From an uncultured Candidatus Saccharibacteria bacterium (lineage in GTDB: Bacteria; Patescibacteriota; Minisyncoccia; Phycocordibacterales; UBA918): 64,000 bases of DNA. Below, piece after piece: positions 2,841 to 41,052 of this stretch (positions are counted from its first letter, which is position 1; the number at the start of each line of letters is the position of its first letter). Where the stretch lies: contig CAZQIF010000001.1 in the NCBI GenBank assembly GCA_964593375.1, positions 6,405 to 70,404 on the forward strand, given 5' to 3'. Made by a program: the position numbers and the translations under genes. The notes under the pieces were generated by a model. The model had not been told where the DNA came from, ran no database searches, and saw only the letters and a list, made by a program, of their open reading frames with translations.

Positions 2841-5800
2841 TTACGAAGGCAACTTCTTATCGAGAAGTCTCTTTTCATTCCTATAGAACAGTGTTGGTAC
2901 GAGTACGAGTGTAAGAATCATCGCGAACGAAAGTCCGAACATGATTGCAAATGCGAGTGGACTCCAAAAGTCAGAGATAGTCGAAAGTGGAATCATACCA
3001 ACAACCGTTGTAATGGTCGTAAGGAATATTGGACGAAGTCTTGATACGGACGCATCAGCAACAACCTCCATGAGTGAATCACTTGGCACCATTCTTTCTC
3101 GATAATGAATCATTGAATCAAGAAGAATAATAGCGTGATTGATGATAACTCCTGCGAGTGCAATAACACCGAGAAGTGAGGTGAAGGAAAGTGCTTGACC
3201 GGTCAGAGCAAGCCCCGCAAACACACCAATGAGTGAGAGTGGAACTGCGAGGAGTAGATATATCGAGTAACGAATCGAGTTAAAAGAGAGCACCAAGATA
3301 GCAAGCATGAGGAGAAGGCCGGCGACAAACGCAAGACCCATCTCTGTAAATGACTTGTTAATGTCTTCTGCTTCACCGCCATATGAGATTCTCACTGTAG
3401 GTGGAAGCGCAAGCTCAGTAGCGCGATTTTTGAATTCAGCAACAATTTCAGCTGCAGTGACACCACTCTGTGTGTAAGCGGTTACAGTTTCAATGCGCTC
3501 CTCATCTTCATGAGCAATATTTGCATTTGCAGGTGCAAGTCGCTCTTTTACAACCGAGCCAAGGAGTACAGACTTTCCGGTTACCGAGGTAATCGACAAA
3601 TTTCTGAGTGTATCAAGGGTAACCGTTGGTGAAGCAGAAAAGTCAGTTTCATTTGGATCAAGTTCAAGCTTTACAACGATATCGGTATCTTCACCGTTTT
3701 GTGTAAAGGTTGTCGCCGTTACCCCAAACACTGCTGAACGGAGCACTTCACCAACCGCTGCGGGTGAAATTCCTGCAGCGCTTGCCTTACTCCTATCAAC
3801 CTCAAGAATAAGTTCAGTTGCATTATTTGAAGTACTGAGTGTGACGTCACGTGTACCGTTAATCGATGCTAGAATCGCTCCAGCTTTTTCAACAACAAGC
3901 GCAAGCTCATTTAGGTCAGAACCGATGAACTTAAGCGTAACCGGTGCACCGGTAGGTGGACCATTTTGCTGTTCGATTACTTTGACATCAACATTTGGAA
4001 GAATTCTGAGTGAATCCCTCAGGTCAGTTGCAATTTCATCACTCGATTCAACACGGTCAGGATTTAATGTGAGCGTTATATTTGCTTGTTTTGCTCCACT
4101 CTTACCTTCACCGGTAAATGCTGAGCCAGCTCCTGCGGTTGAGGTAAACGATTCAACATATCCTTTGTCGTAGAGAAACTCTTCAGCGGTGCGAAGAGCG
4201 AGGTCAGTTTGACCGAGCGTTGTTCCTTGTCGTGTCTCAAGTTCGACGAAAACATAGTCAACGTTTTCTGGTGGGAAGAAAATCACCTTAAGAAGACCAC
4301 TTATTGGAAGTACGAAGACGAGAAGAAAACTGAGTCCAAGTGTCCACATAAATATTTTCTGAGCTCGTGCATTGTGTAGGAAGCTAATGAGTTTAGCGCG
4401 ATACCATGCCTGAGCGCGTTTGGTATATTCATCTTGTTTTGCTTCAAATTTGTTTGAGTGGGAGTGTTTGGTGAGGTATACCGCAATGAGAGGCACCATA
4501 CCGAGGGCCACCACAATTGAGGCGATGAGCACAAATATGATAGTGAACGGAATAGACTTAATGAATTCACCAACAATACCTGAGAGGAAAAAAAGTGGCG
4601 CAAACACTGCAACGGTTGTCATTGTTCCTCCAATGAGTGGCCATGCGTATTCACGAATAGCAGCCTTTGCAGCCTCGTCTGCATTTCCATACTTCTGCAT
4701 GCGCGTATGAATCGCCTCAGTAATCACGATACCGGAATCAACGAGAATACCCACTGCAAGAATGAGTGAGAAAAGTGAAATGAAGTTAATGGTGTTGCCC
4801 GAAGCGTAGAGACCAATAAAGGCTATCACAAACGAAAGAGGAATTGAGAGCGCAGCAACAAGGGATTCTCTCCAACCAATCGTGAAGAGGAGACAAATGA
4901 CAACCAAAAGAACCGTTTCAAAACCAGACTTCACAAGTTCAGAAAGATCTTTCTTAACATTTTCACCTTGGTCATATACGACAAGCACCTGAGAAGAAGC
5001 GAGAAGACCACCATCATTTTTCATTGCCTCCATTTTGTCGAGTACCGCGCTCGACATTTCCGTAACATCAACACCGGCTCGTTTGAATATTGAAAGCGTG
5101 AACGCAGACTCAGCAAGTTCTCCGTCGACTGAAACACGAGAAATACTTGTCTCACGTTCAACACCATTCGTAACGGTCGCAACATCGCGTACGTAGACGG
5201 GCACGCTATTCATCATGCTTACTGGAATACTTTCAATTTCAGAAATTTCAGTAATTTTGCCCTCATACCGTACTGCATACTCAATATCGTCGGTGACTAC
5301 AGTACCAACGGGCAACGTAAGATTGGCGAGACCAAGTGCACGGCTTACATCACTGAGTGTGAGGCCATACGAGGTGAGTGCCGACTCCTTCACAATCACT
5401 TGTACTTGGTGAGGCCGTGTTCCTTCGATAAGGACATCAGATACACCTCGCACATTCTTAAACTCATCAGAAAGTGTTTCTGCAAGTTCGGTAAATTCAA
5501 GTGCAGGCAGGTCTGATGAAACAGAGAGCACAATAATGGGTTGATTTGCAAAATCTACTTTACTCACCATAGGGTCACGTGCATCAGCAGGAAGTTCGCC
5601 CTTTGCATTATCGACAGCATCCTTAAGGTTTTGAATAGATTTATCAATATCGGCATTTGCATCAAAGTTCACCACAATCACCGAAGCACCGTCACGTGAA
5701 GTTGAAGTCAGTGAATCAAGGTCATCAACATTTCCAATCTCTCGCTCTAACTTATTCGTAATAAGTTCCTCGATATCGAGTGCTGAGGCGCCAGGAAAAA

Positions 5801-5951
5801 TGGTCGAAACAATACCAATTGGTACGATTACTTCCGGCGCTGATTCTTTTGGAATAGCAAAAAGCGAGTAGGTACCAATACCAACAAGCGTCACCATGAG
5901 AAGCAGACTAAATTCTCGTTTACGGAGAAAGAAAAACCAAAGTGCATGCAT
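2841..5951 (-). CDS. efflux RND transporter permease subunit (AcrB/HAE family, 1036 aa)
   Basis: Twelve-TM architecture with two large periplasmic loops and conserved RND TM4 / C-terminal regions (..SGIVITEAIHTRM.., ..LAVPLSLIGVFAGLALTG..). It is translationally coupled to the upstream adaptor gene (1-bp gap). Confidence 0.9.
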   Translation of the reverse strand: MHALWFFFLRKREFSLLLMVTLVGIGTYSLFAIPKESAPEVIVPIGIVSTIFPGASALDIEELITNKLEREIGNVDDLDSLTSTSRDGASVIVVNFDANADIDKSIQNLKDAVDNAKGELPADARDPMVSKVDFANQPIIVLSVSSDLPALEFTELAETLSDEFKNVRGVSDVLIEGTRPHQVQVIVKESALTSYGLTLSDVSRALGLANLTLPVGTVVTDDIEYAVRYEGKITEISEIESIPVSMMNSVPVYVRDVATVTNGVERETSISRVSVDGELAESAFTLSIFKRAGVDVTEMSSAVLDKMEAMKNDGGLLASSQVLVVYDQGENVKKDLSELVKSGFETVLLVVICLLFTIGWRESLVAALSIPLSFVIAFIGLYASGNTINFISLFSLILAVGILVDSGIVITEAIHTRMQKYGNADEAAKAAIREYAWPLIGGTMTTVAVFAPLFFLSGIVGEFIKSIPFTIIFVLIASIVVALGMVPLIAVYLTKHSHSNKFEAKQDEYTKRAQAWYRAKLISFLHNARAQKIFMWTLGLSFLLVFVLPISGLLKVIFFPPENVDYVFVELETRQGTTLGQTDLALRTAEEFLYDKGYVESFTSTAGAGSAFTGEGKSGAKQANITLTLNPDRVESSDEIATDLRDSLRILPNVDVKVIEQQNGPPTGAPVTLKFIGSDLNELALVVEKAGAILASINGTRDVTLSTSNNATELILEVDRSKASAAGISPAAVGEVLRSAVFGVTATTFTQNGEDTDIVVKLELDPNETDFSASPTVTLDTLRNLSITSVTGKSVLLGSVVKERLAPANANIAHEDEERIETVTAYTQSGVTAAEIVAEFKNRATELALPPTVRISYGGEAEDINKSFTEMGLAFVAGLLLMLAILVLSFNSIRYSIYLLLAVPLSLIGVFAGLALTGQALSFTSLLGVIALAGVIINHAIILLDSMIHYRERMVPSDSLMEVVADASVSRLRPIFLTTITTVVGMIPLSTISDFWSPLAFAIMFGLSFAMILTLVLVPTLFYRNEKRLLDKKLPS

Positions 5952-5952
5952 A

Positions 5953-7458
5953 TTAGTTTTGTGTTACTGATACTTTGTCACCTTCCTTGAGTCCGCGGGC
6001 ATCGGTAATGATTCGACTGTCTGAAGTCAGTCCGTCGGTAATAAGTACTGAATCACCAGTGATGCTTCCCAGTGTAACGGGGTATGCAACAAGCGTTCCA
6101 TCGTCGCTTACACCAAAGGCAACAGACACTGAAGCAAGAAGCTTCAGTGCTTTAAGTGGTACGACAATAGTAGCATCTCCAGTAGCTTCCTTCGTAGGTG
6201 CAAATACAACCGAAACAGTGCTCCCGTTCTTAAGTGTCAGTGATTCATCAACACTTATTTTTACCTCACTCTTTCCTGTAAGAGGATCAATTGCAGGTGC
6301 AATTTGAGAAATGGTTCCCGTAGCGGAGTTGTTTATGAATACAGTGTCTCCAATATGCACACGTGCAAGGTCCTTTTCGCCGAGCGCGGTACTAACCTCA
6401 AGTGCACCATTGTTTGCAACAATGGCTGCAGGCTGTCCGGGGTTTATATACTCTCCTGTTGTTACGTAAAGGGCATTTACCACACCACCGATAGGAGTGC
6501 GTACGAGTGTTTTCTCGTAGGTAACTTGTGCACCGCGGAGTGTACCAAGTGCACCTTTGAGAAGTGCACTTGATTGTGACACGGTATCAGATGAAGATGA
6601 GAGTACAGCCTGATCGTATCTGAGTCTTGCTCCAGAAATAGAAGCAAGTGCTCCATCGAGTGATGCACGTGCTCCAGCTAGCCGAGACTGATATTCTTCA
6701 ACTTCTGATTCTGAAAATTGTTCAGTAGATTTCTTATCTGTTAGAGCAAGAGCAAAAGCTGCTGTTAGATTACCTACATCAGTCACAACAAGTTCAGCAT
6801 AAGCAAGCATTTCTGATTCACTTATCTGTATAGAATTGTCGAGAATATCTTCAGACCAATTATCTAACTTAATCTCAATATCCTCACGCTTGCTATTAAA
6901 CTCAGGGGCTTTTCCTGTCCCTCCAAGTTTAAAATATACAACTGTCTCTGTAGGTCTCGAATAGAATTCATCGATTAAATTCCTTACTACATTCTCTACT
7001 GTCGAAAAAGTATCTTTGTAGGTGTTGCGCACACCTACTTTGGCTTCATCAAGACTTGAACCACTCTGGAGAGAGCTCGCAAGAGCAGATTCGTACGCTG
7101 CTTCAGCTTGGAGAAGCTGTGCACGTTCGCGAGCATTATCAATCGAAGCAAGTACGGTACCCGCACTAACTCTATCTCCAATTTTCACGTTCACCGAAGT
7201 GATTCTACCACCCGCTTCAGCTTGGAGTGTTGCTTCAGAGATGGCTCGTACGGTTCCTACGACAGAGAAGCCCCCACTTGAGCTGAATGATGAAACACTT
7301 TGTAGTGTCACCATAGGAAGTATCTCGGCGGTCTCACTCTGATTTTCATCAGAACCACTGAGTACAAAGTACAGTGCTACAACTACGAGTAAAACGAGTA
7401 CAGAAAGTACTCCGATGACAACACGTTTCCCATACCAACTATAAAGACGGTTTAACAT
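5953..7458 (-). CDS. efflux RND transporter periplasmic adaptor (HlyD/membrane fusion protein family)
   Basis: N-terminal TM anchor, then long coiled-coil segments and a beta-barrel / lipoyl-like C-terminal domain (..GDRVSAGTVLASID.. / ..HIGDTVFINNSATG..). It sits immediately upstream of the RND permease on the same strand. Confidence 0.85.
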   Translation of the reverse strand: MLNRLYSWYGKRVVIGVLSVLVLLVVVALYFVLSGSDENQSETAEILPMVTLQSVSSFSSSGGFSVVGTVRAISEATLQAEAGGRITSVNVKIGDRVSAGTVLASIDNARERAQLLQAEAAYESALASSLQSGSSLDEAKVGVRNTYKDTFSTVENVVRNLIDEFYSRPTETVVYFKLGGTGKAPEFNSKREDIEIKLDNWSEDILDNSIQISESEMLAYAELVVTDVGNLTAAFALALTDKKSTEQFSESEVEEYQSRLAGARASLDGALASISGARLRYDQAVLSSSSDTVSQSSALLKGALGTLRGAQVTYEKTLVRTPIGGVVNALYVTTGEYINPGQPAAIVANNGALEVSTALGEKDLARVHIGDTVFINNSATGTISQIAPAIDPLTGKSEVKISVDESLTLKNGSTVSVVFAPTKEATGDATIVVPLKALKLLASVSVAFGVSDDGTLVAYPVTLGSITGDSVLITDGLTSDSRIITDARGLKEGDKVSVTQN

Positions 7459-9901: not shown

Positions 9902-10831
9902 ATGTTCACACAAATTTTCATATTTGCTGTTTCCTTGTTTATCGTGATTCAAAGCTCTGTACTTGCGACAAGATATGCAGCACGCATAGCTAATGGTTTT
10001 AATCTTTCGAAATACACCGTCGGATTTATTGTTATTGCAATTATTTCCATTCTACCTGAGACCTTTATTTCAGTGAATTCTGCACTTGAGGGTGTCCCAT
10101 CATTCGGGTTCGGTATGCTTCTTGGTTCAAACGTTGCGGATCTTACCATCGTATTTGCACTTATAGCATTTTTTGCACATAGACCGCTTAAAGTAGAAGG
10201 TCAAATTCTCAAAAGTCATGTTCTCTATCCCTTCATTCTGTTACTTCCAATCGTACTCGGACTGAATGGTGAACTGAACCGTCCTGAGGGTGCAGGACTC
10301 ATTCTTACGGGAATTATTTTTTACTATATGACGCTCAAGCGCGGTAACAAGGTATCGCATACACAAACGCATTCAAAAGGTCAAACAAAATCTATCCTCC
10401 TACTCCTCTTGAGTATGGCACTTCTCCTATTAGGGGCGCATTTTACGGTCACCTCTGCATCTTCACTTGCGATACTCATGGGAATTAGTCCTGTATTAAT
10501 TGGGATGCTCATTGTCGGGCTCGGTACGACGATGCCGGAGTTTTTCTTTTCACTTCGTGCTGTTCGTGCTCATGACGACTCGCTTGCGATTGGCGATATT
10601 CTTGGCACCGTTCTCGCTGACGCAACGATTGTGGTGGGTATCCTCACACTCATTCAACCGTTTACATTTCCAACAGAAATCATTTATGTTGCAGGTGTCT
10701 TCATGGTTGCTGCTGCATTTATTCTCTTTAGCTTTATGCGCTCAGGTAAAAACATATCAGGGAAGGAAGCATTTGCACTCCTTGTGCTTTGGATAGCATT
10801 TATCGCTGTAGAATGCATTGTTAATCTGTAA
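9902..10831 (+). CDS. cation:calcium antiporter family membrane protein (CaCA / YrbG-like Na+/Ca2+ exchanger)
   Basis: Two repeated alpha-repeat regions (..GFIVIAIISILPETFISVNSALEG.. and ..IVGLGTTMPEFFFSLRAVRAHDDSLAIGDILGTVLAD..) in a roughly 10-TM protein. Confidence 0.8.
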   Translation: MFTQIFIFAVSLFIVIQSSVLATRYAARIANGFNLSKYTVGFIVIAIISILPETFISVNSALEGVPSFGFGMLLGSNVADLTIVFALIAFFAHRPLKVEGQILKSHVLYPFILLLPIVLGLNGELNRPEGAGLILTGIIFYYMTLKRGNKVSHTQTHSKGQTKSILLLLLSMALLLLGAHFTVTSASSLAILMGISPVLIGMLIVGLGTTMPEFFFSLRAVRAHDDSLAIGDILGTVLADATIVVGILTLIQPFTFPTEIIYVAGVFMVAAAFILFSFMRSGKNISGKEAFALLVLWIAFIAVECIVNL

Positions 10832-10878
10832 TAAAGAAGTTCACAGAGTCATACATGTAGAAGAACAATGAATATTCT

Positions 10879-11343
10879 TTGGTGTATGATTATAAAATGT
10901 TTACTCTTGAATTTGTAGGATTGTTTTTGTTTATTGCAGGTTTTGTGATTGGTTTAGGTGCCGTTACAGTTATTGACCTCCACGGTTTTCTCGGTCGCCA
11001 CTCATCATATTGGACTCTCGCGACGACACGTACTCACAAAATCACTAAACCGCTCATTTGGATTGGTCTATTACTCTGTATTGTGGGAGGACTGATATTT
11101 TACCAGCACGAGCCTATAGAAAAAGTACTTCTTTTTCATGTGGCAACACTTCCTGTCATGATTCTAAATGGATTATTTCTTTCGTTCCGCATCAGCCCAC
11201 TTCTTCTGCAGAGAGAAAAGGAAGGAAAGGCTGATGTTATTCTTCATCAATCACTACAGGTTCAAATAACTGTTAGTTTTATTTTTTCATTTATCTGCTG
11301 GTGGGGGAATCTTCTCGCACTTGTGTTTTTCCTCACAAACTAG
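10879..11343 (+). CDS. hypothetical membrane protein (4 TM)
   Basis: Hydrophobic ORF with no recognisable family. Confidence 0.55.
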   Translation: MVYDYKMFTLEFVGLFLFIAGFVIGLGAVTVIDLHGFLGRHSSYWTLATTRTHKITKPLIWIGLLLCIVGGLIFYQHEPIEKVLLFHVATLPVMILNGLFLSFRISPLLLQREKEGKADVILHQSLQVQITVSFIFSFICWWGNLLALVFFLTN

Positions 11344-11357
11344 TATACCGATCACTT

Positions 11358-11600
11358 ATGTCGCATCCTTTTTCCAAAATGTTTGAGAAGGCACTCGCGA
11401 AGAGTTACGGTGATGAAAACTTTGTGCTTGCCGAGGCAGAAAAGCTTATGCAGAAAGGGTATAACGCTCATGAGATTTATACTGTGCTTGTAAAGCTGGA
11501 GAAATCACTTATCCAAGATGCTGATGTTGCAATACTCTCTGAAGCTGTTGAAGAATTTAGCCAGTATGTTGACCACCCAGATGAAGAAGTATTGATATAA
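11358..11600 (+). CDS. hypothetical small protein (80 aa)
   Basis: The ORF track begins at 11301 and overlaps the upstream gene. The first ATG that avoids the overlap is at 11358 (MSHPFSKMFEK...). Confidence 0.45.
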   Translation: MSHPFSKMFEKALAKSYGDENFVLAEAEKLMQKGYNAHEIYTVLVKLEKSLIQDADVAILSEAVEEFSQYVDHPDEEVLI

Positions 11601-13898: not shown

Positions 13899-14960
13899 CT
13901 AAAGCTTGAGTAGCTTACGCACATTGTCGAGCGCAACTACATAGAGACTTTCGGCCCATCCGAGTGGAATATTCTCATTTGAATCCTTGGTATGTGAGTA
14001 GTAGAGCTCAGGAATTTTTCCGTCAGCGTTAATGGTTCGTGAGGCTCGCTCAAGATATTGAAATGCCTTTTCAGCATTGCCCATTTCTGCATAAATAATT
14101 GAGAGCCATGCGAGTCCCATAGACCACTCTGCTTCCTCACTATAACCATCACGATTCTTATTGTAGTAACGGTCGTTGCGGTAGCGGATAACACCCATGT
14201 CGCGCGTAAGAAAGTATTCAACATTCGCAAGAATCAGATCTCGTTCCTCGTTTGTTACTACACGGAAAGGGTAGAGCAGTGAGAGAAGTGCCAAATCACA
14301 AAACTTTTGTTCAGATTCTCGTGGAAGAAGCATGCGAAGCGCCGATTCACCATTCTCTATCATGTTTTCTGGTACGGTTAGAAAAGGAATTTGTCGCGCA
14401 AGGCGGAGCGCAGCAACAACCGCACCGACTGATGATGCGTGAAGTTCATGATTTTCCTCCCAAATACCTGAATCAGGGTCATGCCAGTACTCAATATTGT
14501 AAAGGTAATCGATGAGTTTTTGTGCCATCTTGCGTTCCTCGTCGGTTTCAAGAATACTTTGTCCAGCAAGTTCAAGTTCACAAAATAAATGAAGTACTTC
14601 TGCAACTGCATCATTCTGTTTGTTACCCCATTCCTCCCAGTATTCATCAAATGTTTCAGGGTTGTAGCGGGCATGGATGTACTGCCATGTTTCTGAAGGC
14701 TTATTGTGAATTGCCCAGTCAATCTTATCGGTGTGTTTTAAAAGAATCTGAAGGAGTGCTCGTGCAAGCTTTTTTACTGTGTCCCATTCACCGGTCACCA
14801 TGAACCCAAGTGACATAAAATATGCATCGCGAAGCCATGCTTTGTTGTATCCGGTCGAAACGTTGTGTGCTGAGGCAGTAAAGAGGCCGGTTGGTGCTTG
14901 GAGGGCACGAACTTCGGCTAAGTGCTTTGCGATTTCACTTTTTAAATCAATATCTGACAT
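13899..14960 (-). CDS. glycoside hydrolase family 15 protein (glucoamylase/glucodextranase-like catalytic domain)
   Basis: WLRDA motif, (alpha/alpha)6 barrel signature regions (..GLFTASAHNVSTGYNKAWLRDAYF.., ..YWHDPDSGIWEE.., ..LGWAESLYVVAL..). Confidence 0.8.
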   Translation of the reverse strand: MSDIDLKSEIAKHLAEVRALQAPTGLFTASAHNVSTGYNKAWLRDAYFMSLGFMVTGEWDTVKKLARALLQILLKHTDKIDWAIHNKPSETWQYIHARYNPETFDEYWEEWGNKQNDAVAEVLHLFCELELAGQSILETDEERKMAQKLIDYLYNIEYWHDPDSGIWEENHELHASSVGAVVAALRLARQIPFLTVPENMIENGESALRMLLPRESEQKFCDLALLSLLYPFRVVTNEERDLILANVEYFLTRDMGVIRYRNDRYYNKNRDGYSEEAEWSMGLAWLSIIYAEMGNAEKAFQYLERASRTINADGKIPELYYSHTKDSNENIPLGWAESLYVVALDNVRKLLKL

Positions 14961-16626: not shown

Positions 16627-16700
16627 TGGACAACATTGCTTTTCGCTGTTAGGGTAATTTCGGATTTAGGGTTCTTCACAACGAACAAAGGAGTATAGAA

Positions 16701-18242
16701 ATGGCCAAGATTCCATCAGCTGTTGCTGAATCGCATCTGTCACATCTTCTCGGGCGCTATTTGCACCGTTTCCACCAAGGCAAGGTTCGGGATTCATACC
16801 TGCTTCCGGATTACGACGACCTCATGCTCGTTGTTGCAACCAATCGCTGCAGTATTTTTGACTTTGTCCTCAACACCACCATTCCGCACAAAGGAGCAAT
16901 CCTCACGGCAATGAATGTGTTTGGAACGAAGTACATCGTCGGCGACCTTTGCCCAACCGACTTAGTTGCCTGTGGAAGCGACATTGTGCGGTATCTCCCA
17001 CGAGAACTTCGGGGAAATATCGAACTGCAAATGACAGGAACGGTTGCGCGGAAGTTCATACCGCCGACGGTTGAGGATGTGGTGCGTAACGCAATAACGG
17101 GAAGTGGCTACAAGAGTTACTGCAAGGATGGCACCATTTGTGGTCACCGTCTTCCACCTGGACTTCAGAATGGTAACTTACTTCCGTATCTGCTCTACAC
17201 ACCAACAACAAAAGCATCTGTTGGTCATGATGAGCCGATTACCGCTGATAGCGTAGGTCTGCAATTTGGACCAGCACGGGAGCGACTCAGTTTGCAACTC
17301 ACTGCGCTTGCCGTACGTCATGCACTTTCGCGCGGTCTCATTCTCGCTGATACAAAGGAAGAGCTCAGTTACTTCGTGAATAAGAACGAAGAGCGCGAGT
17401 GGGTACTCGTCGACGAACGTTTTACGCTTGACTCGTCGCGTATCTGGGACAAACGTGCGTGGGAAATGGCGCAACGCGAAGGAAAGTTGCCACCATCGTT
17501 CGATAAGCAGTATGTGCGTGGCTGGGGCGAAGACAATGGCATCAATGGGACGCTCAATCCCGAAGATGAAGAAGTTCTCGCTCGTGTTCACGCACAAGTT
17601 GTCCCCGATGATGTGGTTCTGGCCTCCACAAAGCTATTTCGCTACGGTTTCTGGCGGTGGACTGGTCAGAAGCTGGAGAATTTTCAGCGAATTGAAATGG
17701 GAATTGACGTTCATGTTCCAAGGCCGAGTGTGCATGTAATCGTGGGGAGCAATAGCGATTTCTTGCAAATTGAGCACGGCATCTCGCACTTTGAATCACA
17801 TGGAATTGAGCACAAGGTGCACGTCATCAGTTGCCACCGCAACCGCGACGAGTTGGCGAATTATGTTGCTGACATTGCACAGCACCAAGAAGGTCGTCCT
17901 GACCGCATCATCGCTGGGGCCGGTATGGCTGCAGCACTCCCTGGAGTGCTTAAAGCTGAGCTCTGCAACTTTGGCCTCAAGGAGATTCCGGTCATTGGTG
18001 TTGCATTTCAAGGAAAGTCTGACACAGACAATCTCGCTGCACAGCTGTCTATCGAGCGCCTTCCTGAAGAGCCTGTTGAGCTCGACAAGGCCGGCAATGC
18101 GTACTTTGGCTCTGAAGGGTTCATGAGAGCATGTGACTCAGCGATACACGATGAATTTCTCACTCGTGGATATACGCACAAACCAGCACAGTTCAACGCT
18201 GACATTCGTCCATATCTTGCTGAAAGGGGTGTTCTCTCCTAA
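16701..18242 (+). CDS. bifunctional SAICAR synthetase (PurC-like, N-terminal) / AIR carboxylase-N5-CAIR mutase (PurE-like, C-terminal) fusion protein
   Basis: N-terminal GKVRDSYLLPDYDDLMLVVATNRCSIFDFVL matches the SAICAR synthetase signature. C-terminal VHVIVGSNSDFLQIEHG...ISCHRNRDEL...IIAGAGMAAALPGVLKAELCNFGLKEIPVIGVAFQ matches PurE. The gene is markedly GC-richer than its neighbours. Confidence 0.85.
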   Translation: MAKIPSAVAESHLSHLLGRYLHRFHQGKVRDSYLLPDYDDLMLVVATNRCSIFDFVLNTTIPHKGAILTAMNVFGTKYIVGDLCPTDLVACGSDIVRYLPRELRGNIELQMTGTVARKFIPPTVEDVVRNAITGSGYKSYCKDGTICGHRLPPGLQNGNLLPYLLYTPTTKASVGHDEPITADSVGLQFGPARERLSLQLTALAVRHALSRGLILADTKEELSYFVNKNEEREWVLVDERFTLDSSRIWDKRAWEMAQREGKLPPSFDKQYVRGWGEDNGINGTLNPEDEEVLARVHAQVVPDDVVLASTKLFRYGFWRWTGQKLENFQRIEMGIDVHVPRPSVHVIVGSNSDFLQIEHGISHFESHGIEHKVHVISCHRNRDELANYVADIAQHQEGRPDRIIAGAGMAAALPGVLKAELCNFGLKEIPVIGVAFQGKSDTDNLAAQLSIERLPEEPVELDKAGNAYFGSEGFMRACDSAIHDEFLTRGYTHKPAQFNADIRPYLAERGVLS

Positions 18243-18258
18243 GCAATGTTTGGTACAG

Positions 18259-18290
18259 GCCGCCCGGAAGTTTCGGGCGGTTTTCTTTTG
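18259..18290 (+). terminator. intrinsic terminator (CGCCCG-gaagttt-CGGGCG followed by a T-run)
   Basis: Seen in the sequence. Confidence 0.7.
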
Positions 18291-18297
18291 CGTAGAA

Positions 18298-18333
18298 TAA
18301 TCCCCCGCGAAGGCAAAGCCTTCGTGGGGGATT
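18298..18333 (-). terminator. intrinsic terminator for minus gene 18351..18986 (CCCCCGCGAAGG-caaag-CCTTCGTGGGGG)
   Basis: 12-bp stem with one GU-type pair, followed by a T-run on the minus strand. Confidence 0.6.
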
Positions 18334-18350: not shown

Positions 18351-18986
18351 CTAGTTCCTTGCAGTTCCAATCGTGACGGCAGTTTCACCATCAGTTGAAC
18401 CAATGCTAATGATGACACTATCTTCACCTTGTGTAGCAGAAACCATTCCGCCATCGGTGGTTACCATTGTCGCTTCTATCGTCCAGCCTTTATCTGCTAA
18501 TTCTGATTTATAAAATTCAGTTACCTCACTCATTGAATCACGTGTGGTAAACGCAACAGTTTGACCAGATCCATCTGCACTTCCTCCACTTTGTGCATAC
18601 GAAATTTTTGCGTCATTAGGAAGAGGGATTGAACTTGGCCAATTATCAGGAAGTTTTATATTTTCACCAGTGCTGATATTGATTTGTTCTCCATCGTCAC
18701 CCTTAATTTGCATGGTGCCTTGACCGTCATCATTTGTATTCATTTCATAACCATCACCCTTTACCTTAACACTCCCATCGCGGTCAATGTCGACATCGTA
18801 TTGACCTCCGGTTGCTCGCTCAAGCATTTTCTCAGATAGTCGTTCGGGGTTAAAAAACATCGACTGAATAGCTCCAAGAGCAACGAGCACAACAATACCA
18901 ATGATAATCCACTTAGTAGTTTGTGATTTCGCCGGTGTGGCAGTTGTTGCTACTGGCTCAGGTGTTTGATTTTGTGTTTCTTCCAT
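18351..18986 (-). CDS. hypothetical membrane-anchored protein (N-terminal TM, Gly/Asp/Thr-rich extracytoplasmic domain)
   Basis: 211-aa ORF bracketed by terminators. Confidence 0.7.
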   Translation of the reverse strand: MEETQNQTPEPVATTATPAKSQTTKWIIIGIVVLVALGAIQSMFFNPERLSEKMLERATGGQYDVDIDRDGSVKVKGDGYEMNTNDDGQGTMQIKGDDGEQINISTGENIKLPDNWPSSIPLPNDAKISYAQSGGSADGSGQTVAFTTRDSMSEVTEFYKSELADKGWTIEATMVTTDGGMVSATQGEDSVIISIGSTDGETAVTIGTARN

Positions 18987-21896: not shown

Positions 21897-22445
21897 ATGA
21901 AAATCGCTATCGGTACGCTCCGCAAACCAAAAATCGACGGCATTAAAGAAGGTGTGAGCTCATGTCCGTATTTTCGTGATGTTCTTGAATCGATTGAATT
22001 CATTCCCACTGAAGTCTCTTCAGATATCAGCCATATGCCACTCACAATTCAAGAAGTAATGCAGGGAGCATTCAACCGCGCGAGAAATTTAATTAAACTC
22101 GGCATAGAAGCTGATTACTACATTGGCATCGAAGGTGGTGTCTCTCGTTTTGGTGAAAAAGCGTACATTTTCGGATGCGTATACATACAAAATGCTACAG
22201 GAGAAGGTCACTATGGTTTTTCACCCATGGCAGAAGTACCAAAACTCGTTGATGCACGACTCTATGAGAATGGGGAAGAGCTTGGACACATAATGGGAGA
22301 ACTTTCAGGAAGAACCGATATTCGTTCCGAAAACGGAAGCATGGGCGCATGGACTGATGACATGTTCACAAGAAAAGATGAATTCGTCGACGCCTTCAAA
22401 GCCGCCATCGCCCCGTTTTATAATTCGTTTTATACACTCAAATAA
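21897..22445 (+). CDS. yjjX: inosine/xanthosine triphosphatase (non-canonical purine NTP phosphatase, YjjX family)
   Basis: IGIEGGV, AGEGHYGFSP and a C-terminal ...AFKAAIAPFYNSFY that parallel E. coli YjjX (..AIEAGI.., ..ALSPFHNAVY). Confidence 0.8.
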   Translation: MKIAIGTLRKPKIDGIKEGVSSCPYFRDVLESIEFIPTEVSSDISHMPLTIQEVMQGAFNRARNLIKLGIEADYYIGIEGGVSRFGEKAYIFGCVYIQNATGEGHYGFSPMAEVPKLVDARLYENGEELGHIMGELSGRTDIRSENGSMGAWTDDMFTRKDEFVDAFKAAIAPFYNSFYTLK

Positions 22446-25104: not shown

Positions 25105-27891
25105 ATGAGAATAAACTTTTCTGAAGTACAACGTAATGTCTCCGAGATTGCTAATCGCCAACAGTATACAATCAATGTGCTATATGAACTGATGGCTGCT
25201 TATGGTCGCTCTGCTTCATCAATCACGAAGCTTAGAAACGGAGTCAATAATCTCGCCGCTGACAAAAATACTACTGTTCTCCAACGCGGTGTAGTTTATT
25301 TTAAAGTCATTCAAAATACCGGCAGTTTGCCAGCTCAAGTCGAAAAACTAGAACAAGACCCTTTAACACAGCGCTACAACCCACGCTTTTTAATTGCGAC
25401 TGACTTAAAAAACTTTGCAGCAAAAGACACGAAGAAAGGAAACACACTTGAAATTGACTGGACTAACATAGACAGAAATGTTGATTTTTTTTATGGCTGG
25501 ACCGGAGACGAGGTTACTAGCGAAAAGACCGAAGCCGTTGCTGACCGCAGAGCTGCAGATAAAATGAAGGAGCTATACCAAGAAGTCGAGAAGGTCAATG
25601 CAAGCAAGTTCAAAAAAACCGGAAAGGATTTTCGTCACAATCTCAATGTATTTTTCACACGCCTGCTTTTCTGCTTCTTTGCTGAAGATACCGGGGTTTT
25701 TGCAAAAGAAGAGAGAGGAGTTTTTACAAGTGCAATACGTGATTATACGCAGATAGACGGTTCGGACTTAGATCAATTCCTCGGGACACTTTTCGAGTCA
25801 CTTGATGAAGAAGATAAAAGTATCTTCACTAGTCCATTTTCTAAGTTCCCATATGTAAATGGAAGATTGTTCGATAAGACTTATGGAATAGAAATTCCAA
25901 AATTTAATGCGCAGTCACGGCATCTTATTCTTGAATGCGGTGCACTTAGTTGGGCCCAAATCAATCCAGACATATTTGGTTCGATGTTCCAGAGTATTGT
26001 TGATGAGGAACATCGCGCTACTCACGGGATGCACTACACAAGCGTGCCAAATATTATGAAGACTATAGAGCCCCTATTCCTAGATGAACTCCGTGATGAA
26101 TTTGATAAATATTATGATGACCCAAAAAAGTTACAAAAACTGCATGAAAGGATATCAAAGATAAAAATATTTGATCCAGCTTGTGGCTCAGGAAATTTTT
26201 TAATCATTGCTTATAAGGAACTCAGAAAACTAGAACATGCCATTATTGAGCGTCTGTTTGAAGATGAATACATTGCCAATCAGCTTAAGAATAAGCTGCA
26301 ATCAAGTATTGACCTGAATAATTTCTACGGAATTGAGATAGATGATTTTGCGTGTGAGGTTGCTGTACTTTCGCTTTACTTGACTAAACATCAAATGAAC
26401 TTGGAGTTTGAAAAGCAGTTTGGTAGGGAAATCAAACTCATCCCACTTGTAGATAAGGCCAATGTTATTCACGGGAATGCAACCAGACTCGATTGGCAAG
26501 AAGTTTGCCCAAACGTCCCAACAAAGAAAAGTATGATTACTGAGCTGCAAGGACAGCTAATTGTGACTGAAGAAAATACCAATCACCTTCTGATGGAGAA
26601 TGAATGGGATGAAATATATCTCATTAGTAATCCTCCGTACTTGGGTCAACCTAATCAAGAAGATTCGCATAAAGCGGACATGGATTTTGTATTTGGGGGG
26701 TTACAGGGTAAGTTTAAGAAACTTGACTATGTCGGGTGTTGGTTTTTTAAGGGTACAGAATACATATCCAATACAAAAGCAAAATTAGCATTCATATCAA
26801 CTAACTCCATTTTTCAAGGTGTTCAAGTTGAGCAACTTTGGCCAAAATTATTCAGTCATAATATCGAGATTCAGTTTGCTTTTTCTCCTTTCAGGTGGAC
26901 TAACAACGCAAGAGATAATGCGGGTGTGTATGTGACTGTGGTCTCCTTAAGAGTGAGAGGAAAGTCAGATAAGTATTTGTTTATTGATGGAATCAAGTTG
27001 AAAGCGCGGAACATTAACGCATACTTGATTGATGCAGATAACATAATCGTAGGCAAGACAAAGCATTCGATTTCAAGCCTACATCCAGTGCTAGGGGGGT
27101 GCCAGCCACGTGAGGGTGGGCATCTCATGCTGTCCGATAAAGAGAAGCATGAGTTGTTAAAAAGATCTCCAGAAGCAAATAGATTCATCAAACCGATGAT
27201 TGGCACAAATGAACTAATTAAGGGAACTCGGAAGTGGTGCATTTGGATAGAAGATTCAGAACTAGATGAAGCTTTCAAGATTAAGGAAATCAAGGAAAGA
27301 GTAAACTCTGTCCGAGCGCATAGAATCTCTGGAAATTCAGTTGAGCGAACATTTGCTAACGTTCCTCATAGGTTTGTTACAATCAAACGCCCAATGGCGC
27401 ATCAAATTGTAATTCCTAACTTAACACCCATTGATAAACCTTATCTTCCATTAGGATACTTAAATAGAGAGTACATTGTAAATAAGCAAGCATATTGCAT
27501 ATTTGACTCTGGTTTGGAATATTTTGCACTTTTAATATCAAAAACTCACATGAAATGGCTCGAAGTAGTTTGCGGTAGATTGGGCAACGCAATAAGCTAT
27601 TCTGCACATATTGGATATAATACTTTCCCGGTAAAGAATATGGATGAAAGTGAAGTTAATAAGCTAAGAGCTTCGGCCAGGGAAATATTATTTACACGAC
27701 AAAATCATTCAGAAATGAGTTTGGGAGAGCTGTACTCTACAACCACCATGCCAGATGATTTGCGTGAGGCGCATCATCAAAATGACTTACTGGTAGACAA
27801 GTTATATCGACAAAAACCGTATGCTAATGATGAAGAACGACTGACTGACTTGTTTAAATTGTATGAAGAAATGATAACTAAAGAGAAATAA
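25105..27891 (+). CDS. MmeI-family Type IIL-like restriction-modification protein (N-terminal nuclease-like domain, gamma-class N6-adenine DNA methyltransferase, C-terminal target-recognition domain)
   Basis: There are long collinear matches to MmeI: RLLFCFFAEDT, FPYVNGRLF, IFGSMFQSIVD, HYTSVPNIMKTIEPLFLDEL, FDPACGSGNFLIIAYKELRKLE (motif I), FYGIEIDDF, HQMN, NPPY (motif IV), FISTNSIFQGVQVEQLWP, FAFSPFRWTNNA, AYLID, RKWCIWI, YNTFP. The upstream segment PRFLIATDLKNF parallels MmeI PRYVLVCDFQRF. Confidence 0.9.
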   Translation: MRINFSEVQRNVSEIANRQQYTINVLYELMAAYGRSASSITKLRNGVNNLAADKNTTVLQRGVVYFKVIQNTGSLPAQVEKLEQDPLTQRYNPRFLIATDLKNFAAKDTKKGNTLEIDWTNIDRNVDFFYGWTGDEVTSEKTEAVADRRAADKMKELYQEVEKVNASKFKKTGKDFRHNLNVFFTRLLFCFFAEDTGVFAKEERGVFTSAIRDYTQIDGSDLDQFLGTLFESLDEEDKSIFTSPFSKFPYVNGRLFDKTYGIEIPKFNAQSRHLILECGALSWAQINPDIFGSMFQSIVDEEHRATHGMHYTSVPNIMKTIEPLFLDELRDEFDKYYDDPKKLQKLHERISKIKIFDPACGSGNFLIIAYKELRKLEHAIIERLFEDEYIANQLKNKLQSSIDLNNFYGIEIDDFACEVAVLSLYLTKHQMNLEFEKQFGREIKLIPLVDKANVIHGNATRLDWQEVCPNVPTKKSMITELQGQLIVTEENTNHLLMENEWDEIYLISNPPYLGQPNQEDSHKADMDFVFGGLQGKFKKLDYVGCWFFKGTEYISNTKAKLAFISTNSIFQGVQVEQLWPKLFSHNIEIQFAFSPFRWTNNARDNAGVYVTVVSLRVRGKSDKYLFIDGIKLKARNINAYLIDADNIIVGKTKHSISSLHPVLGGCQPREGGHLMLSDKEKHELLKRSPEANRFIKPMIGTNELIKGTRKWCIWIEDSELDEAFKIKEIKERVNSVRAHRISGNSVERTFANVPHRFVTIKRPMAHQIVIPNLTPIDKPYLPLGYLNREYIVNKQAYCIFDSGLEYFALLISKTHMKWLEVVCGRLGNAISYSAHIGYNTFPVKNMDESEVNKLRASAREILFTRQNHSEMSLGELYSTTTMPDDLREAHHQNDLLVDKLYRQKPYANDEERLTDLFKLYEEMITKEK

Positions 27892-27892
27892 T

Positions 27893-29851
27893 ATGAACAA
27901 GGAAACAATAAACATAATAGAAAATGAGTATGAGCAGACGGGTGCAAGTAAGCGTCAGAATGAATTTGGCATGCGTGAGATGCAAGTGCGAGCCTATGAA
28001 AAACGTAATAGTAATCATTTACTGATTAAAGCTCCACCTGCATCTGGTAAATCTCGGGCACTAATGTTTATTGCCTTGGACAAACTACACAATCAAGGTA
28101 AGAAGAAAGTAATTGTGGCGGTACCCGAAACTTCAATTGGTGCTTCATTTTCTAGTATCAAACTTACAGAAAACGGTTTCTATGCTGACTGGGTTGTAGA
28201 ACCGATGAATAATCTATGTGCAGGTACTTGTGATGATAAAAGTAAAGTTAAGGCTTTTGTTAGATTCATGAATGGTGAAGATCGAATACTTGTTTGTACT
28301 CACGCAACACTTCGCTTTGCTTTTGAGGAGATACCATCCAAAGATTTCAATGACTGCGTATTGGCAATTGATGAATTCCACCATGTCTCAACGAGTGATT
28401 CGAGTCGGCTAGGAGAATTGGTCAGAAATGTGATGCGTGATTCTAATGTTCAAATGATTGCAATGACCGGGTCATACTTTCGAGGTGATGCTGTGCCCAT
28501 ACTTCGTGCAGAGGATGAAATGAATTTTGATAAAGTCACTTACACTTACTACGAACAACTTAACGGGTATGAGTACTTGAAAACCCTGGGCATAGGTTAT
28601 CACTTCTATACCGGAAACTACCTCGATAAAGGCGCGCTCGATAGTGTGCTAGATACAACAAAGAAGACCATCATTCATATTCCAAATGTGAATTCAAAAG
28701 AGTCAACACAGATTGGTAAGGATGAAGAGGTGCAACATATCTACGGTATCATTGGTGAATGGATCGAACAGGATTCCGATACTGGTATAGAAATTTTAGA
28801 AACAGAAGATGGTAGAAAATTGAAGATCGCAAATCTTGTGGAGGATGAACCAATTCATAGAAGCAAGTTAGACAAATATCTAGCTGACGTGGCTCGAGAT
28901 AGTATCGATGGCGTAGACATTATCATCGCACTTGGTAAGGCAAAAGAAGGATTTGATTGGCCATTTTGTGAACAAGCACTCACCATCGGGTATCGAGCAA
29001 GTCTAACTGAAATCGTACAAATAATAGGTCGTTGCACGAGAGATAGCTACAACAAAAACCACGCACAGTTCACAAATTTAATCGTTCAACCAAATGGAAC
29101 ACAGGATGATGTACAGGTATCGGTCAATAACATGCTCAAGGCGATTACCGCTTCTTTACTCATGGAGCAGGTCCTCGCCCCTAACTTTACTTTCAAACCA
29201 AGGACATCCCCACGAGATAAAACTTCTGCAGGGGAGGTGTTTGTCAAAGGACTCAGACAACCAACGAATGAGAAGGTGAAAAGAATACTGGAAACCGAGT
29301 TGGAAGATTTAACTGCTGCTGTTCTGCAAGACACACAATATCAAAGGTCCGTAGCAGCAGACCATTCTCCTGAGTATCGCAAGCACTTGCAATCAAAAAT
29401 AATTCGAGAAAAACTGCCTGGTCTCACTGACGAGGAAGTGGAGACAACAAGACAGTATCTCGCTAGCAACCTGGCGTTTAAAACCGGAAAGATAACTGCA
29501 GATGGAGATAAGAAATTTATTACCATGGCAAATAGTTTCGTTAATCTTGATGATTTGACCATTGACTTGATTGATTCTGTGAACCCATTCCAGCATGCGT
29601 TTGAGGTTATTTCTAAAAAAGTAGGTGCTGATGTATTCAGGGTCATTCAGGATACGATTGCTGGTTCACGTATAGATATGTCAGACGAGGATGCACTTGT
29701 GCTCGTTCCTCAAATAGAGTCGTTTGTCGTCACTCACAATGGTCAACACCCAAAACTGAATTCAAACGACAAGAATGAGAAGTTACTAGCACAGGCAAAA
29801 GCGTATCTCACTGCTAGATATTCTCAAATCATGAGGGATAAGCAAAAATAA
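27893..29851 (+). CDS. SF2 helicase-family ATPase (DExH box), 652 aa
   Basis: Motif I APPASGKS, Ia VAVPETS, II DEFHH, III MTGS, VI QIIGRCTRD. The start codon lies 1 bp after the stop of the methyltransferase gene. Confidence 0.85.
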   Translation: MNKETINIIENEYEQTGASKRQNEFGMREMQVRAYEKRNSNHLLIKAPPASGKSRALMFIALDKLHNQGKKKVIVAVPETSIGASFSSIKLTENGFYADWVVEPMNNLCAGTCDDKSKVKAFVRFMNGEDRILVCTHATLRFAFEEIPSKDFNDCVLAIDEFHHVSTSDSSRLGELVRNVMRDSNVQMIAMTGSYFRGDAVPILRAEDEMNFDKVTYTYYEQLNGYEYLKTLGIGYHFYTGNYLDKGALDSVLDTTKKTIIHIPNVNSKESTQIGKDEEVQHIYGIIGEWIEQDSDTGIEILETEDGRKLKIANLVEDEPIHRSKLDKYLADVARDSIDGVDIIIALGKAKEGFDWPFCEQALTIGYRASLTEIVQIIGRCTRDSYNKNHAQFTNLIVQPNGTQDDVQVSVNNMLKAITASLLMEQVLAPNFTFKPRTSPRDKTSAGEVFVKGLRQPTNEKVKRILETELEDLTAAVLQDTQYQRSVAADHSPEYRKHLQSKIIREKLPGLTDEEVETTRQYLASNLAFKTGKITADGDKKFITMANSFVNLDDLTIDLIDSVNPFQHAFEVISKKVGADVFRVIQDTIAGSRIDMSDEDALVLVPQIESFVVTHNGQHPKLNSNDKNEKLLAQAKAYLTARYSQIMRDKQK

Positions 29852-29854
29852 TTC

Positions 29855-31021
29855 ATGTCTGACAAAGATTTTACAAAAGAATTACGCGAACTTTTTGAAT
29901 CAGAAGCCGGCGCCTTATTTATCCCGAAGGAGACACCCAGGAAACTTACTGTAGATGATAGATTAGCTGAGTCCTTCCAACAGATAATAAATTTTGTACA
30001 AGAAAATGATTGTAAACCAGAAATTGATTCACTAGACTTCAATGAGGCACTGCTATCAAAACGACTTGAATTGATAAAACATACACCAGAAAAAGTTCAA
30101 GCCTTAGAACAATATGATTCTTTAGGGTTGTTGGTACAGCCTGAAACACCAAAGAGTATTGAAGAGTTATTTGAAAAAGATGAGTTTGGACTTTTTAAAG
30201 GTGATGAGAACAAAATCTTCAACATTGAACACATCAAACAAAGGAAGGTTGTAAATCCAGTGGGAGAAAGAGCCACAAGGATTAAATCGGAAGACTTTGC
30301 TGAATTTGAAATAATCTTTAAAGATGCTCAGGAAAAGCTAAAGAGTGGAGATAATAAGCTCTTCGCATTTAAATCCGTCGAACAACTTCACGTAGGACAT
30401 CTTTATATTAACAGTGGACAAATGGTCTATGTTGCAAGTGAGGGTCAGATAGATGAAAAGGCTGGCTATAAGCAGCAGAGACTACGAGTGATTATTGAGA
30501 ATGGCACTGAATCGAACATGTATAGACGCTCCCTCGCTCAACGATTATATGAAGGTGGATATTGTGTAGTTGGTAACGAAGAATTATCTAGTGGTCTTCC
30601 TGATGAATCGGAAAAGATTAAAGGGTACATTTATGTCGTACGTTCTTTGAGTGAAAATTCAAAAATAAATACAATTGCAAATCTCTACAAAATTGGTTTT
30701 TCCAGAACACCGGTTTCTCAAAGAATTGCTAATGCAAAAATCGATCCTACCTACCTGATGTCTGAAGTGGATCTGGTTGAGAGTTACAGATTAACAGGAG
30801 ATTACAACCCACAAAAAGTAGAGGATATGATTCATAGGGTATTTTCAGATGTTGCCCTCGATATGAAGATAATTGATAACCAAGGTCGAGAGTATAAACC
30901 AAAGGAGTGGTATTCAGTACCAATTCATATTATTCGCGAAGTAGTTGATCTTATAGATTCTGGTGAGATTGTGAATTATGTTTATGATTCAAACCAGCAA
31001 AAGATGGAACTGGTAAAATAA
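29855..31021 (+). CDS. T5orf172 (MUG113/GIY-YIG-like) domain-containing protein, 388 aa
   Basis: C-terminal GYIYVVRSLSENSKINTIANLYKIGFSRTPVSQRIANAKIDP...EDMIHRVF...EWYSVPIHII fits the T5orf172 pattern (G.IYV....KIG.T.....R......EWF). The N-terminal 250 aa are unassigned. The start lies 3 bp after the helicase stop. Confidence 0.75.
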   Translation: MSDKDFTKELRELFESEAGALFIPKETPRKLTVDDRLAESFQQIINFVQENDCKPEIDSLDFNEALLSKRLELIKHTPEKVQALEQYDSLGLLVQPETPKSIEELFEKDEFGLFKGDENKIFNIEHIKQRKVVNPVGERATRIKSEDFAEFEIIFKDAQEKLKSGDNKLFAFKSVEQLHVGHLYINSGQMVYVASEGQIDEKAGYKQQRLRVIIENGTESNMYRRSLAQRLYEGGYCVVGNEELSSGLPDESEKIKGYIYVVRSLSENSKINTIANLYKIGFSRTPVSQRIANAKIDPTYLMSEVDLVESYRLTGDYNPQKVEDMIHRVFSDVALDMKIIDNQGREYKPKEWYSVPIHIIREVVDLIDSGEIVNYVYDSNQQKMELVK

Positions 31022-31190
31022 GCAACAAGAAATTTTTTGTATAGTAACTATATCAACCTTACCATGTGATTTTTATTTATTAAAAAAGTAATCGTGAATA
31101 GAATCTAGTTTACCTGATTGTGGACAAATATACGTTCATTAATTTAAAATTTGTAACATCAGTTGATGTGTTCGAAAAATTTGCATTCTT

Positions 31191-32507: not shown

Positions 32508-32569
32508 TTAGTGCTAGCATTCTAACATGTGAGTTAAAAGTGATCAATCACTTACACCAACACACCACA

Positions 32570-33376: not shown

Positions 33377-33435
33377 GATATTGACGTTGTCTTTCTTACA
33401 CAGTTTACTTTTATATAATATTTAGCTTAACTTAT

Positions 33436-40371: not shown

Positions 40372-40428
40372 CAAACTCTCTAAGAGACCGTAGAGAGTTT
40401 GACTTTGGTGTTGATATATAATAATTCA

Positions 40429-41046: not shown

Positions 41047-41052
41047 CAAAAA

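Follow-up and report, generated by a model that had tools for sequence, protein, structure and literature searches.

A fused PurC-PurE gene of Patescibacteria with a probable role in purine biosynthesis

Introduction

Animal PAICS is the textbook PurC-PurE fusion, and the PurK/class I step of bacteria, which differs from the human route, is an antibacterial target. The stretch of DNA analysed here (64,000 nucleotides of contig CAZQIF010000001.1, assembly GCA_964593375.1, hereafter the window) carries a gene on the plus strand, at 16701-18242, that joins a synthetase for succinylaminoimidazole carboxamide ribonucleotide (SAICAR), PurC, to a PurE-like domain in a single chain. An earlier sequence-only reading had described this gene as PAICS-like in architecture, as probably horizontally acquired and as possibly non-canonical in function. 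The locus raises the question of where such a fusion came from, what it does and how it relates to PAICS. The answer that we favour, with a probability of roughly 0.8, is that the gene encodes a functional bifunctional enzyme of de novo purine synthesis from a Patescibacteria-specific family, that the fusion was born within the Candidate Phyla Radiation (CPR), that the high guanine-plus-cytosine (GC) content is a shared trait of the family and that no recent import took place. The window gene is an ordinary member of an uncharacterised Patescibacteria PurC-PurE family, which would represent a convergent prokaryotic counterpart of PAICS built on a class-I-derived PurE. The ORF, its domains, its family, the conserved residues, the association with pur genes, the composition and the synteny were observed directly; catalysis, channelling, oligomeric state and any PurK independence are inferred.

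A single open reading frame joins a PurC and a PurE domain

The gene and the signals that flank it are as follows.

16701-18242, plus strand: PurC-PurE coding sequence, ATG start, TAA stop, 513 amino acids (aa), from the listing of open reading frames (ORFs)
16688-16693, plus strand: Shine-Dalgarno sequence AAGGAG, 7 nt 5' of the ATG, read from the sequence
18257-18293, plus strand: intrinsic terminator of the PurC-PurE gene, with a 12-bp GC-rich stem, a 3-nt loop and a T-run, from a terminator scan and the sequence
18300-18333, minus strand: second hairpin, from the minus-strand terminator scan and the sequence

The description of a single 513-aa ORF joining PurC and PurE proved exact: the frame lies at precisely 16701-18242 on the plus strand, and both Pfam domains were found in it. 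The N-terminus, MAKIP, is conserved across the fusion family, and the annotated start is therefore right. The terminator of the gene starts 15 nt past the TAA, and the hairpin that follows it probably terminates the convergent gene further downstream (18351-18986, minus strand). This second hairpin is kept in L090, the closest relative, where blastn against the window returned it as an inverted match of 94% identity. A protein 100% identical to that of the window, P0001, is present on an NCBI contig of 216,871 bp.

The N-terminal half contains the following PurC features, all on the plus strand; the motifs were taken from the family alignment.

16770-17537, plus strand: SAICAR synthetase (PurC) domain, aa 24-279, Pfam PF01259
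16779-16793, plus strand: PurC motif GKVRD, in invariant columns
16842-16865, plus strand: PurC motif NRCSIFDF
17070-17105, plus strand: PurC motif VEDVVRNAITGS
17199-17234, plus strand: PurC motif TPTTKASVGHDE
17343-17363, plus strand: PurC motif LADTKEE
17412-17447, plus strand: PurC motif DERFTLDSSRIW
17502-17525, plus strand: PurC motif DKQYVRGW

The match to PF01259 (SAICAR_synt) is strong (E 1.3e-39, 136.8 bits against a gathering cutoff of 20), and the PurC fold extends to about aa 335, past the Pfam limit at aa 279. The motifs that bind the nucleotide, carboxyaminoimidazole ribonucleotide (CAIR) and aspartate are all present and are invariant in 26 aligned members of the family, in which they take the forms GKVRD, (D/N)RxSIFDF, ExxxR...TGS, TKA..GHD, ADTKxE, DExxTxDSSRxW and DKQxxRxW. 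The invariant residues of this half are G27-K28-V29-R30, R49, S51, D54, E125, R129, K171, H176, D177, D217, K219, E221, D238-E239, D244-S245-S246-R247, D268-K269 and R273.

The C-terminal half contains the following features, whose motifs were aligned with those of Escherichia coli PurE.

17730-18155, plus strand: divergent class-I-like PurE domain, aa 344 to about 485
17745-17759, plus strand: PurE P-loop GSNSD
17829-17843, plus strand: PurE 40s loop SCHRN
17913-17945, plus strand: PurE 70s loop AGAGMAAALPG
17985-18008, plus strand: PurE segment IPVIGVAF
18045-18065, plus strand: PurE segment LSIERLP

PF00731 (AIRC) matches aa 344-456 with an E value of 3.6e-18 and 66 bits against a gathering cutoff of 30. 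Across the fused family this half conserves the P-loop G-S-x-S-D, the 40s loop S-C-H-R-N and the 70s loop A-G-x-A-A-A-L-P-G, and in the 26 aligned members G349, S350, S352, D353, S377, R380 and G408 are invariant while H379 occurs in at least 90%. The motif ISCHRNRD, which had been singled out as atypical, does occupy aa 376-383 of the window protein; it is not peculiar to this gene, S-C-H-R-N being invariant or nearly so across the whole fusion family. The fused PurE retains both the catalytic histidine and the arginine that follows it (H379, R380), and this position holds an arginine in class I and a lysine in class II enzymes (PMC10484210).

Both halves resemble stand-alone microbial enzymes

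We modelled the monomer with AlphaFold (AF2) from the family alignment, and obtained a model with a predicted local distance difference test score (pLDDT) of 92.3 and a predicted template modelling score (pTM) of 0.89. PurC and PurE are joined directly, and no long flexible linker separates them. A profile of the fusion family was in addition scored against the chains of the Protein Data Bank (PDB). For the N-terminal half, from aa 1 to about 335, the best match is the long type of SAICAR synthetase represented by Saccharomyces cerevisiae Ade1 (1a48, 2cnq) and the Mycobacterium abscessus enzyme (6yvq): the profile reaches E 9e-73 with yeast 1a48 and 8e-70 with M. abscessus PurC, and in Foldseek comparisons this half superposes on the yeast and M. 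abscessus enzymes with template modelling (TM) scores of 0.80-0.86 at 30-35% identity (2cnq, TM 0.86). These long-type synthetases stand alone, without the C-terminal PurE domain that the fusion bears. The C-terminal half matches class I PurE both by profile (E 3e-19 to 4e-14) and by fold, with a root-mean-square deviation (rmsd) of about 2 Å (range 1.9-3 Å; 3oow, 1.9 Å) at about 30% identity in Foldseek. With the class I enzymes (E. coli 1qcz/1d7a, Acetobacter aceti 2fw1, Francisella tularensis 3oow) it shares the fold, GSxSD, S-x-H-R and AG...LPG; it differs from them in that they stand alone, in that their 40s loop reads SAHRTP where the fusion has SCHRN, and in its 70s loop AGMAAALPG, which has no histidine. 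Chain 3rg8, which we take to be the class II stand-alone PurE of Treponema denticola, reaches only E 0.006 with the profile.

The relation to animal PAICS (2h31, 6yb8, 7ale and the insect 4ja0) is of a different kind. PAICS likewise has an N-terminal SAICAR synthetase and a C-terminal PurE fold in one chain, serving consecutive purine steps, and the rationale, coupling or channelling of CAIR, is likely the same. However, its PurE is of class II, with lysine rather than arginine after the catalytic histidine, and the PurC half of the CPR protein is of the long yeast/actinobacterial type. The family profile matches PAICS at E 1e-6 to 1e-7 over part of its PurE half only; the PurC half of PAICS was not matched by the profile, and no PAICS was among the phmmer matches at E ≤ 1. 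Superposition of both domains on PAICS gave 16% identity, an rmsd of 13-16 Å and TM scores of 0.30-0.48. The label "PAICS-like architecture" is therefore apt for the domain order and misleading beyond it, each half being much closer to stand-alone microbial enzymes. Fusion or gene loss has reorganised the CAIR-forming step elsewhere too: fungal and plant Ade2 is a PurK-PurE fusion, in which the partner is PurK and not PurC, and in bacteria with class II PurE, such as T. denticola, PurK has been lost.

The fusion family and its probable origin within CPR

Among 5.8 billion clustered proteins, over 100 clusters of 483-526 aa combine the two Pfam domains as the window protein does. Their identity to it is 43-53%, with one further cluster at 81%, and every named cluster in the family is from Patescibacteria/CPR. 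When one genome was scanned for each GTDB species, the fusion likewise turned up in many Patescibacteria metagenome-assembled genomes (MAGs); the few MAGs with other labels are probably mislabelled bins. When the PurE half alone was searched against 1.84 billion proteins, it returned only 88 representatives at E ≤ 1e-10, about 35-40 of which have a fusion-like length of about 450-560 aa. The subfamily is small and distinct.

We built neighbour-joining trees, which carry no support values, for the two halves separately. In the PurE tree the fused domains form one clade, sister to divergent stand-alone PurE proteins of CPR and apart from canonical PurE, and in the PurC tree the fused halves form a clade nested among CPR PurCs, among which Myxococcota PurCs nest as well. 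The divergent stand-alone CPR PurEs (L050, L061, L043, L083) share with the fused form the insertion after the 70s loop, the changes in the GVA/GVP region and the short C-terminus. They differ from it in being encoded by separate genes, mostly in the order purE then purC, in keeping the 70s-loop histidine (AGWAAHLPG or AGWANHLTG) and in having Q, I or V at the position of the fused-form cysteine. As the halves of the fusion are nearest to microbial enzymes and are nested among CPR sequences, the fusion is independent of PAICS; it probably arose within CPR, from a CPR-type purC and a CPR-specific divergent purE.

At L083 (3434-4962) purC is followed 30 nt on by a divergent CPR-type purE in another reading frame, an arrangement that represents the fusion in either split or frameshifted form. 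Apparent fusions of Micrarchaeota (L046-L048, at about 10000-11400) were rejected, purC and purE being separate adjacent genes with stop codons between them; the two happen to share a frame, and their PurE has AGLSAALPG, with no 70s-loop histidine. Locus L036 was likewise rejected; its assembly is frameshifted and of low coverage.

The searchable literature returned eukaryotic PAICS or unrelated papers and no account of a PurC-PurE fusion in a prokaryote, and a review of archaea terms the fused PurCE "common in eukaryotes". Databases name the proteins of the fusion family as PurC only, with the consequence that surveys of pathway completeness in Patescibacteria may score the PurE step as missing. 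As a separate observation, six IMG/VR contigs (L104-L106, L108, L112 and L123) have PAICS-like two-domain matches spanning query aa 25-419 or 25-441 at 26-27% identity; three of these large viral contigs are labelled as giant-virus MAGs, and they are distinct from the CPR family.

Purine-pathway context and proposed function

What the family does is best indicated by the genes beside its other members. At the following loci the fusion adjoins purine or guanine biosynthesis genes.

L009: fusion beside purF, purM, purN and purL
L020: fusion beside purL and purN
L022: fusion beside purL
L002, L004, L005, L006, L007, L017, L019, L025: fusion beside purB
L002, L007: fusion beside purH
L005, L008: fusion beside purD
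L010, L014, L018: fusion beside guaA

In other CPR genomes the two genes are unfused, for example in the order purH-purB-purE-purC of L061. Since the fusion of the relatives adjoins pur and gua genes, a role in ordinary de novo purine synthesis is indicated, and in one survey about a third of CPR MAGs encode complete de novo purine synthesis (PMC11608272). The sequence-only reading had stated that the same fusion in a complete pur operon of close relatives would refute its interpretation, and this is largely what the relatives show, in partial to nearly complete clusters around copies of about 50% identity. We propose that the PurE half would make CAIR from N5-carboxyaminoimidazole ribonucleotide (N5-CAIR) or, if PurK is lacking, from aminoimidazole ribonucleotide (AIR) and CO2 through N5-CAIR that forms spontaneously. 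The PurC half would then ligate aspartate to CAIR in an ATP-dependent reaction to give SAICAR. In a fused enzyme the ATP-driven step could pull the reversible carboxylation and hold CAIR nearby, the same logic as has been proposed for animal PAICS.

Several observations weigh against this assignment. The remark that no other purine-biosynthesis genes lie nearby was confirmed: tblastn of the 64 kb with 12 E. coli pur/gua and 2 CPR PurB/PurH queries (E ≤ 1e-4) found no other pur or gua gene, and Pfam scans of 40 other window ORFs found no purine gene; the window covers 64 kb of a contig of at least 217 kb. Neither half reaches the cutoffs for its named family. The best score to the purC equivalog models of NCBIfam (NF010568 among them) is 198.3 bits against 251, TIGR00081 (purC) gives 95.6 against 189.9, and the purE equivalog-domain model TIGR01162 gives 58.1 against 149.6; by these scores the protein is not a standard orthologue. 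In the PurC half the window protein departs from the family consensus at D48N, P243L and F220E (DTKEELS as opposed to DTKFEFG). In the PurE half the class I 70s-loop histidine is gone (AAALPG as opposed to AAHLPG), with alanine throughout the fused family; a family-invariant cysteine replaces the alanine beside the catalytic histidine; GVA replaces GVP; an insertion of about 7 residues follows the 70s loop; and the C-terminus, which in the class I homo-octamer includes a swapped helix, differs from that of canonical PurE. Two members, P0007 and P0120, have aspartate for the catalytic histidine in the alignment (SCDRN), and their PurE copies may be inactive or work differently. An A. aceti PurE with the corresponding change from His to Asp is reportedly inactive, and 2fwi, a PurE H59D structure, was among the fold-search matches. 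To these points must be added the want of branch support in the trees from which the origin of the two halves was read.

Such departures could be taken to mean that the PurE half is non-catalytic, serving as a scaffold for oligomerisation or in a role outside purine synthesis such as that of a LarB-like carboxylase, and the score below the purE equivalog cutoff, the altered loops and C-terminal region and the two aspartate-bearing members are what this reading has in its favour. We consider it highly improbable: the family as a whole conserves the catalytic positions (Ser, Asp, Ser, His, Arg and Gly), and the genomic association is with pur genes only. A LarB-like or other non-purine role was rejected, as no chain named LarB was among the PDB sequence matches and no LarB model among the NCBIfam matches (both at E ≤ 1). 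The suggestion of a non-canonical role, drawn from the unusual motif, likewise gives way to the reading of a bifunctional purine enzyme, since SCHRN is the signature of the family, the catalytic residues (Ser, Asp, His and Arg) remain in place and the relatives sit in pur clusters.

A different question is whether the PurE half depends on PurK. It might be a PurK-independent former of CAIR, an analogue of class II enzymes on a class-I-derived scaffold, whose fusion to PurC offsets the loss of PurK. No purK was found in the 64-kb window, nor within 10 kb on either side of about 22 fused copies, though purB, purH, purD, purL, purN, purM, purF and guaA occur there; L009, the fullest cluster, has no ATP-grasp gene, and in ordinary bacteria (L060, L065) purE and purK are adjacent. 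The lost 70s-loop histidine and the invariant cysteine beside the catalytic histidine would fit a changed mechanism, and there is a precedent in the many archaea without purK and in E. coli PurE, which converts AIR to CAIR at high bicarbonate (PMC3261824). With purK missing from the neighbourhood and these archaeal and E. coli precedents, a PurK-independent enzyme pulled by PurC is a reasonable hypothesis. Against it, the arginine after the catalytic histidine is the class I state, the 70s-loop change from His to Ala also occurs in otherwise canonical PurEs (L054, L035 and the Micrarchaeota loci), and at least one CPR genome in which purC is unfused does have purK (L031). We therefore regard PurK independence as possible but doubtful. 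An independent bacterial fusion that has a class-I-derived PurE, and near which no purK was found, does offer a natural test of coupling, that is, of channelling versus thermodynamic pull. The individual gene is of moderate to low interest, and of more if PurK independence is true.

Nucleotide-related matches also occur elsewhere in the window. A gene 3.6 kb downstream (21897-22445, plus strand) encodes an NTPase_I-T/DUF84 protein (Pfam E 2.4e-35), presumably of the inosine/xanthosine triphosphatase family. The only others among the 40 ORFs scanned with Pfam are an ATP-cone protein (56723-57730) and a NUDIX insert in leucyl-tRNA synthetase (LeuRS).

Base composition and the question of gene transfer

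The gene is indeed GC-richer than its neighbours, as the sequence-only reading had it. Its GC of 0.512 compares with 0.418 ± 0.036 in the other 47 ORFs that reach 150 aa (z 2.6; the highest of 48), its GC at third codon positions (GC3) of 0.504 with 0.363 ± 0.056 in the other window ORFs, and GC steps sharply at its borders, from 0.42 to 0.51 to 0.41. Of the excess of +0.094, +0.039 is due to amino-acid composition and 0.053 to synonymous choice, each the largest among 35 long genes. The pile-up of spurious ORFs that had been attributed to this composition is real without being the most extreme. Five ORFs of 80 aa or longer lie in alternative frames, which gives 3.2 per kb where the median gene has 1.05; this density ranks second of 28 genes, the gene at 13899-14960 having 4.7 per kb.

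These features prompted the suggestion of horizontal acquisition, and taken singly they would suit a recent import from a GC-richer donor whose foreign signature has yet to ameliorate. The synonymous excess of +0.053, with NCG, CGG and AAG codons enriched, does not resemble classic translational selection, which we rejected as the sole cause of the high GC3 on account of the enriched NCG and CGG codons (AAG being enriched too). The isolation of the gene from other pur genes in the window points the same way, as does the fall in identity of the fusion to its relatives from 81% to 53%, whereas that of LeuRS runs continuously from 87% to 62%. The offset, however, is not particular to this copy. 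The fusion gene has a higher GC than its neighbours in 19 of 20 fused loci (mean +0.065 GC and +0.106 GC3, Wilcoxon p about 1e-4), its GC tracks that of the host across these loci (r = 0.79; GC3 slope 0.90), and a regression fitted without the window predicts 0.509 where 0.512 is observed. Because the offset is family-wide and the window value lies on the trend with host GC, the high GC is no sign of recent foreign origin, and the case serves as a warning against inferring gene transfer from the GC of one gene.

The genomic setting agrees with this. In L090 the gene order is the same, with protein identities of 85% for the zincin gene, 81% for the fusion and about 75% for the downstream 211-aa gene. 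Four-fold-site identity between the window and L090 is similar in the three genes (0.53, 0.47 and 0.42, respectively), and the fusion has a four-fold-site GC (GC4) of 0.46-0.47 in either lineage, compared with 0.30-0.41 in the flanks. The shared synteny and divergence imply that the gene already occupied this position when the two lineages separated, at a depth of about 0.9 synonymous substitutions per site, a distance that cannot by itself separate a maintained GC offset from slow amelioration. The host, too, is a Patescibacterium, as shown by the relatives of its LeuRS, which have 62-73% identity and, where named, come from Ca. Pacebacteria, the Patescibacteria group and Ca. Kaiserbacteria. 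The gene itself falls within CPR clades. Otherwise the window reads as an ordinary CPR chromosome (BipA, YchF, MnmA, FtsK, YceG, DUF5671 and a restriction-modification (R-M) island); it contains no tRNA, and neither an integrase nor a transposase was found when ten ORFs from 12.3 to 24.6 kb were scanned. The CPR-type fusion was found on no viral contig, the best viral matches being PurC-only at 36-39% identity. With the GC excess shared by 19 of 20 orthologues, synteny in L090, nesting among CPR and no integrase or tRNA, the verdict of probable horizontal acquisition is not supported, and we consider a recent transfer of the PurC-PurE gene clearly unlikely.

An older event is harder to dismiss. 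A purine gene set that includes the fusion may have spread laterally among CPR, or from GC-richer bacteria, at an earlier time, which would be compatible with the proposed function. The pur and gua genes adjoining the fusion share its offset, at +0.066 GC and +0.094 GC3 over other neighbours in 23 genes (purB, purH, purD, purL, purN, purM, purF and guaA flanking the fusion in L002, L004-L010, L014 and L017-L020), and housekeeping genes of the window lie at most about +0.04 above its mean of 0.416-0.418 (LeuRS 0.451, BipA 0.458, YchF 0.442, FtsK 0.411). The nesting of Myxococcota PurCs among those of CPR would fit such a spread. According to a 2026 preprint, 93% of Patescibacteria genomes are without de novo nucleotide synthesis, and the nucleotide-biosynthesis genes have "scattered phylogenetic distributions" (doi 10.64898/2026.06.21.733656). 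On the other hand, the strong correlation of gene and host GC implies long residence or co-evolution and not frequent transfer, and the offset could equally be a selected property or one of the gene class. We hold older spread to be a tenable explanation, though one that falls somewhat short of even odds. If it is combined with PurK independence, a bolder proposal follows, which we put forward tentatively as speculation: the fusion would be a third functional kind of CAIR-forming enzyme, a PurK-free module from AIR to SAICAR that evolved in genome-reduced bacteria convergently with PAICS, and the purine GC excess would mark a distinct and possibly circulating gene set.

Other features of the window

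The LeuRS gene (49234-52080, plus strand) has its NUDIX hydrolase domain inserted at aa 384-511, just past the editing domain. Of the top 120 LeuRS clusters, which have 62-73% identity and, where named, come from Patescibacteria, most share the insert; some relatives of about 800 aa are without it. The R-M/defence island, at about 25105-34632, has a GC of 0.36-0.41 and encodes a 928-aa MmeI-type fused R-M enzyme, a DEAD/ResIII helicase, a T5orf172/MUG113 protein, a C5 cytosine methylase (minus strand) and a DUF2130 protein. A DUF3800 gene with a GC of 0.276 is followed directly by a DUF3800-IX RNA motif, the two together spanning 40399-41140.

41072-41140, minus strand: DUF3800-IX RNA motif (Rfam, 50.3 bits against a gathering score of 36.8)

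Finally, a full-length AcrB-type resistance-nodulation-division (RND) transporter (E 5.9e-178) lies beside a HlyD-family membrane-fusion protein at 2841-7458 on the minus strand. Components of tripartite pumps are unusual in CPR bacteria, which are thought to lack an outer membrane.

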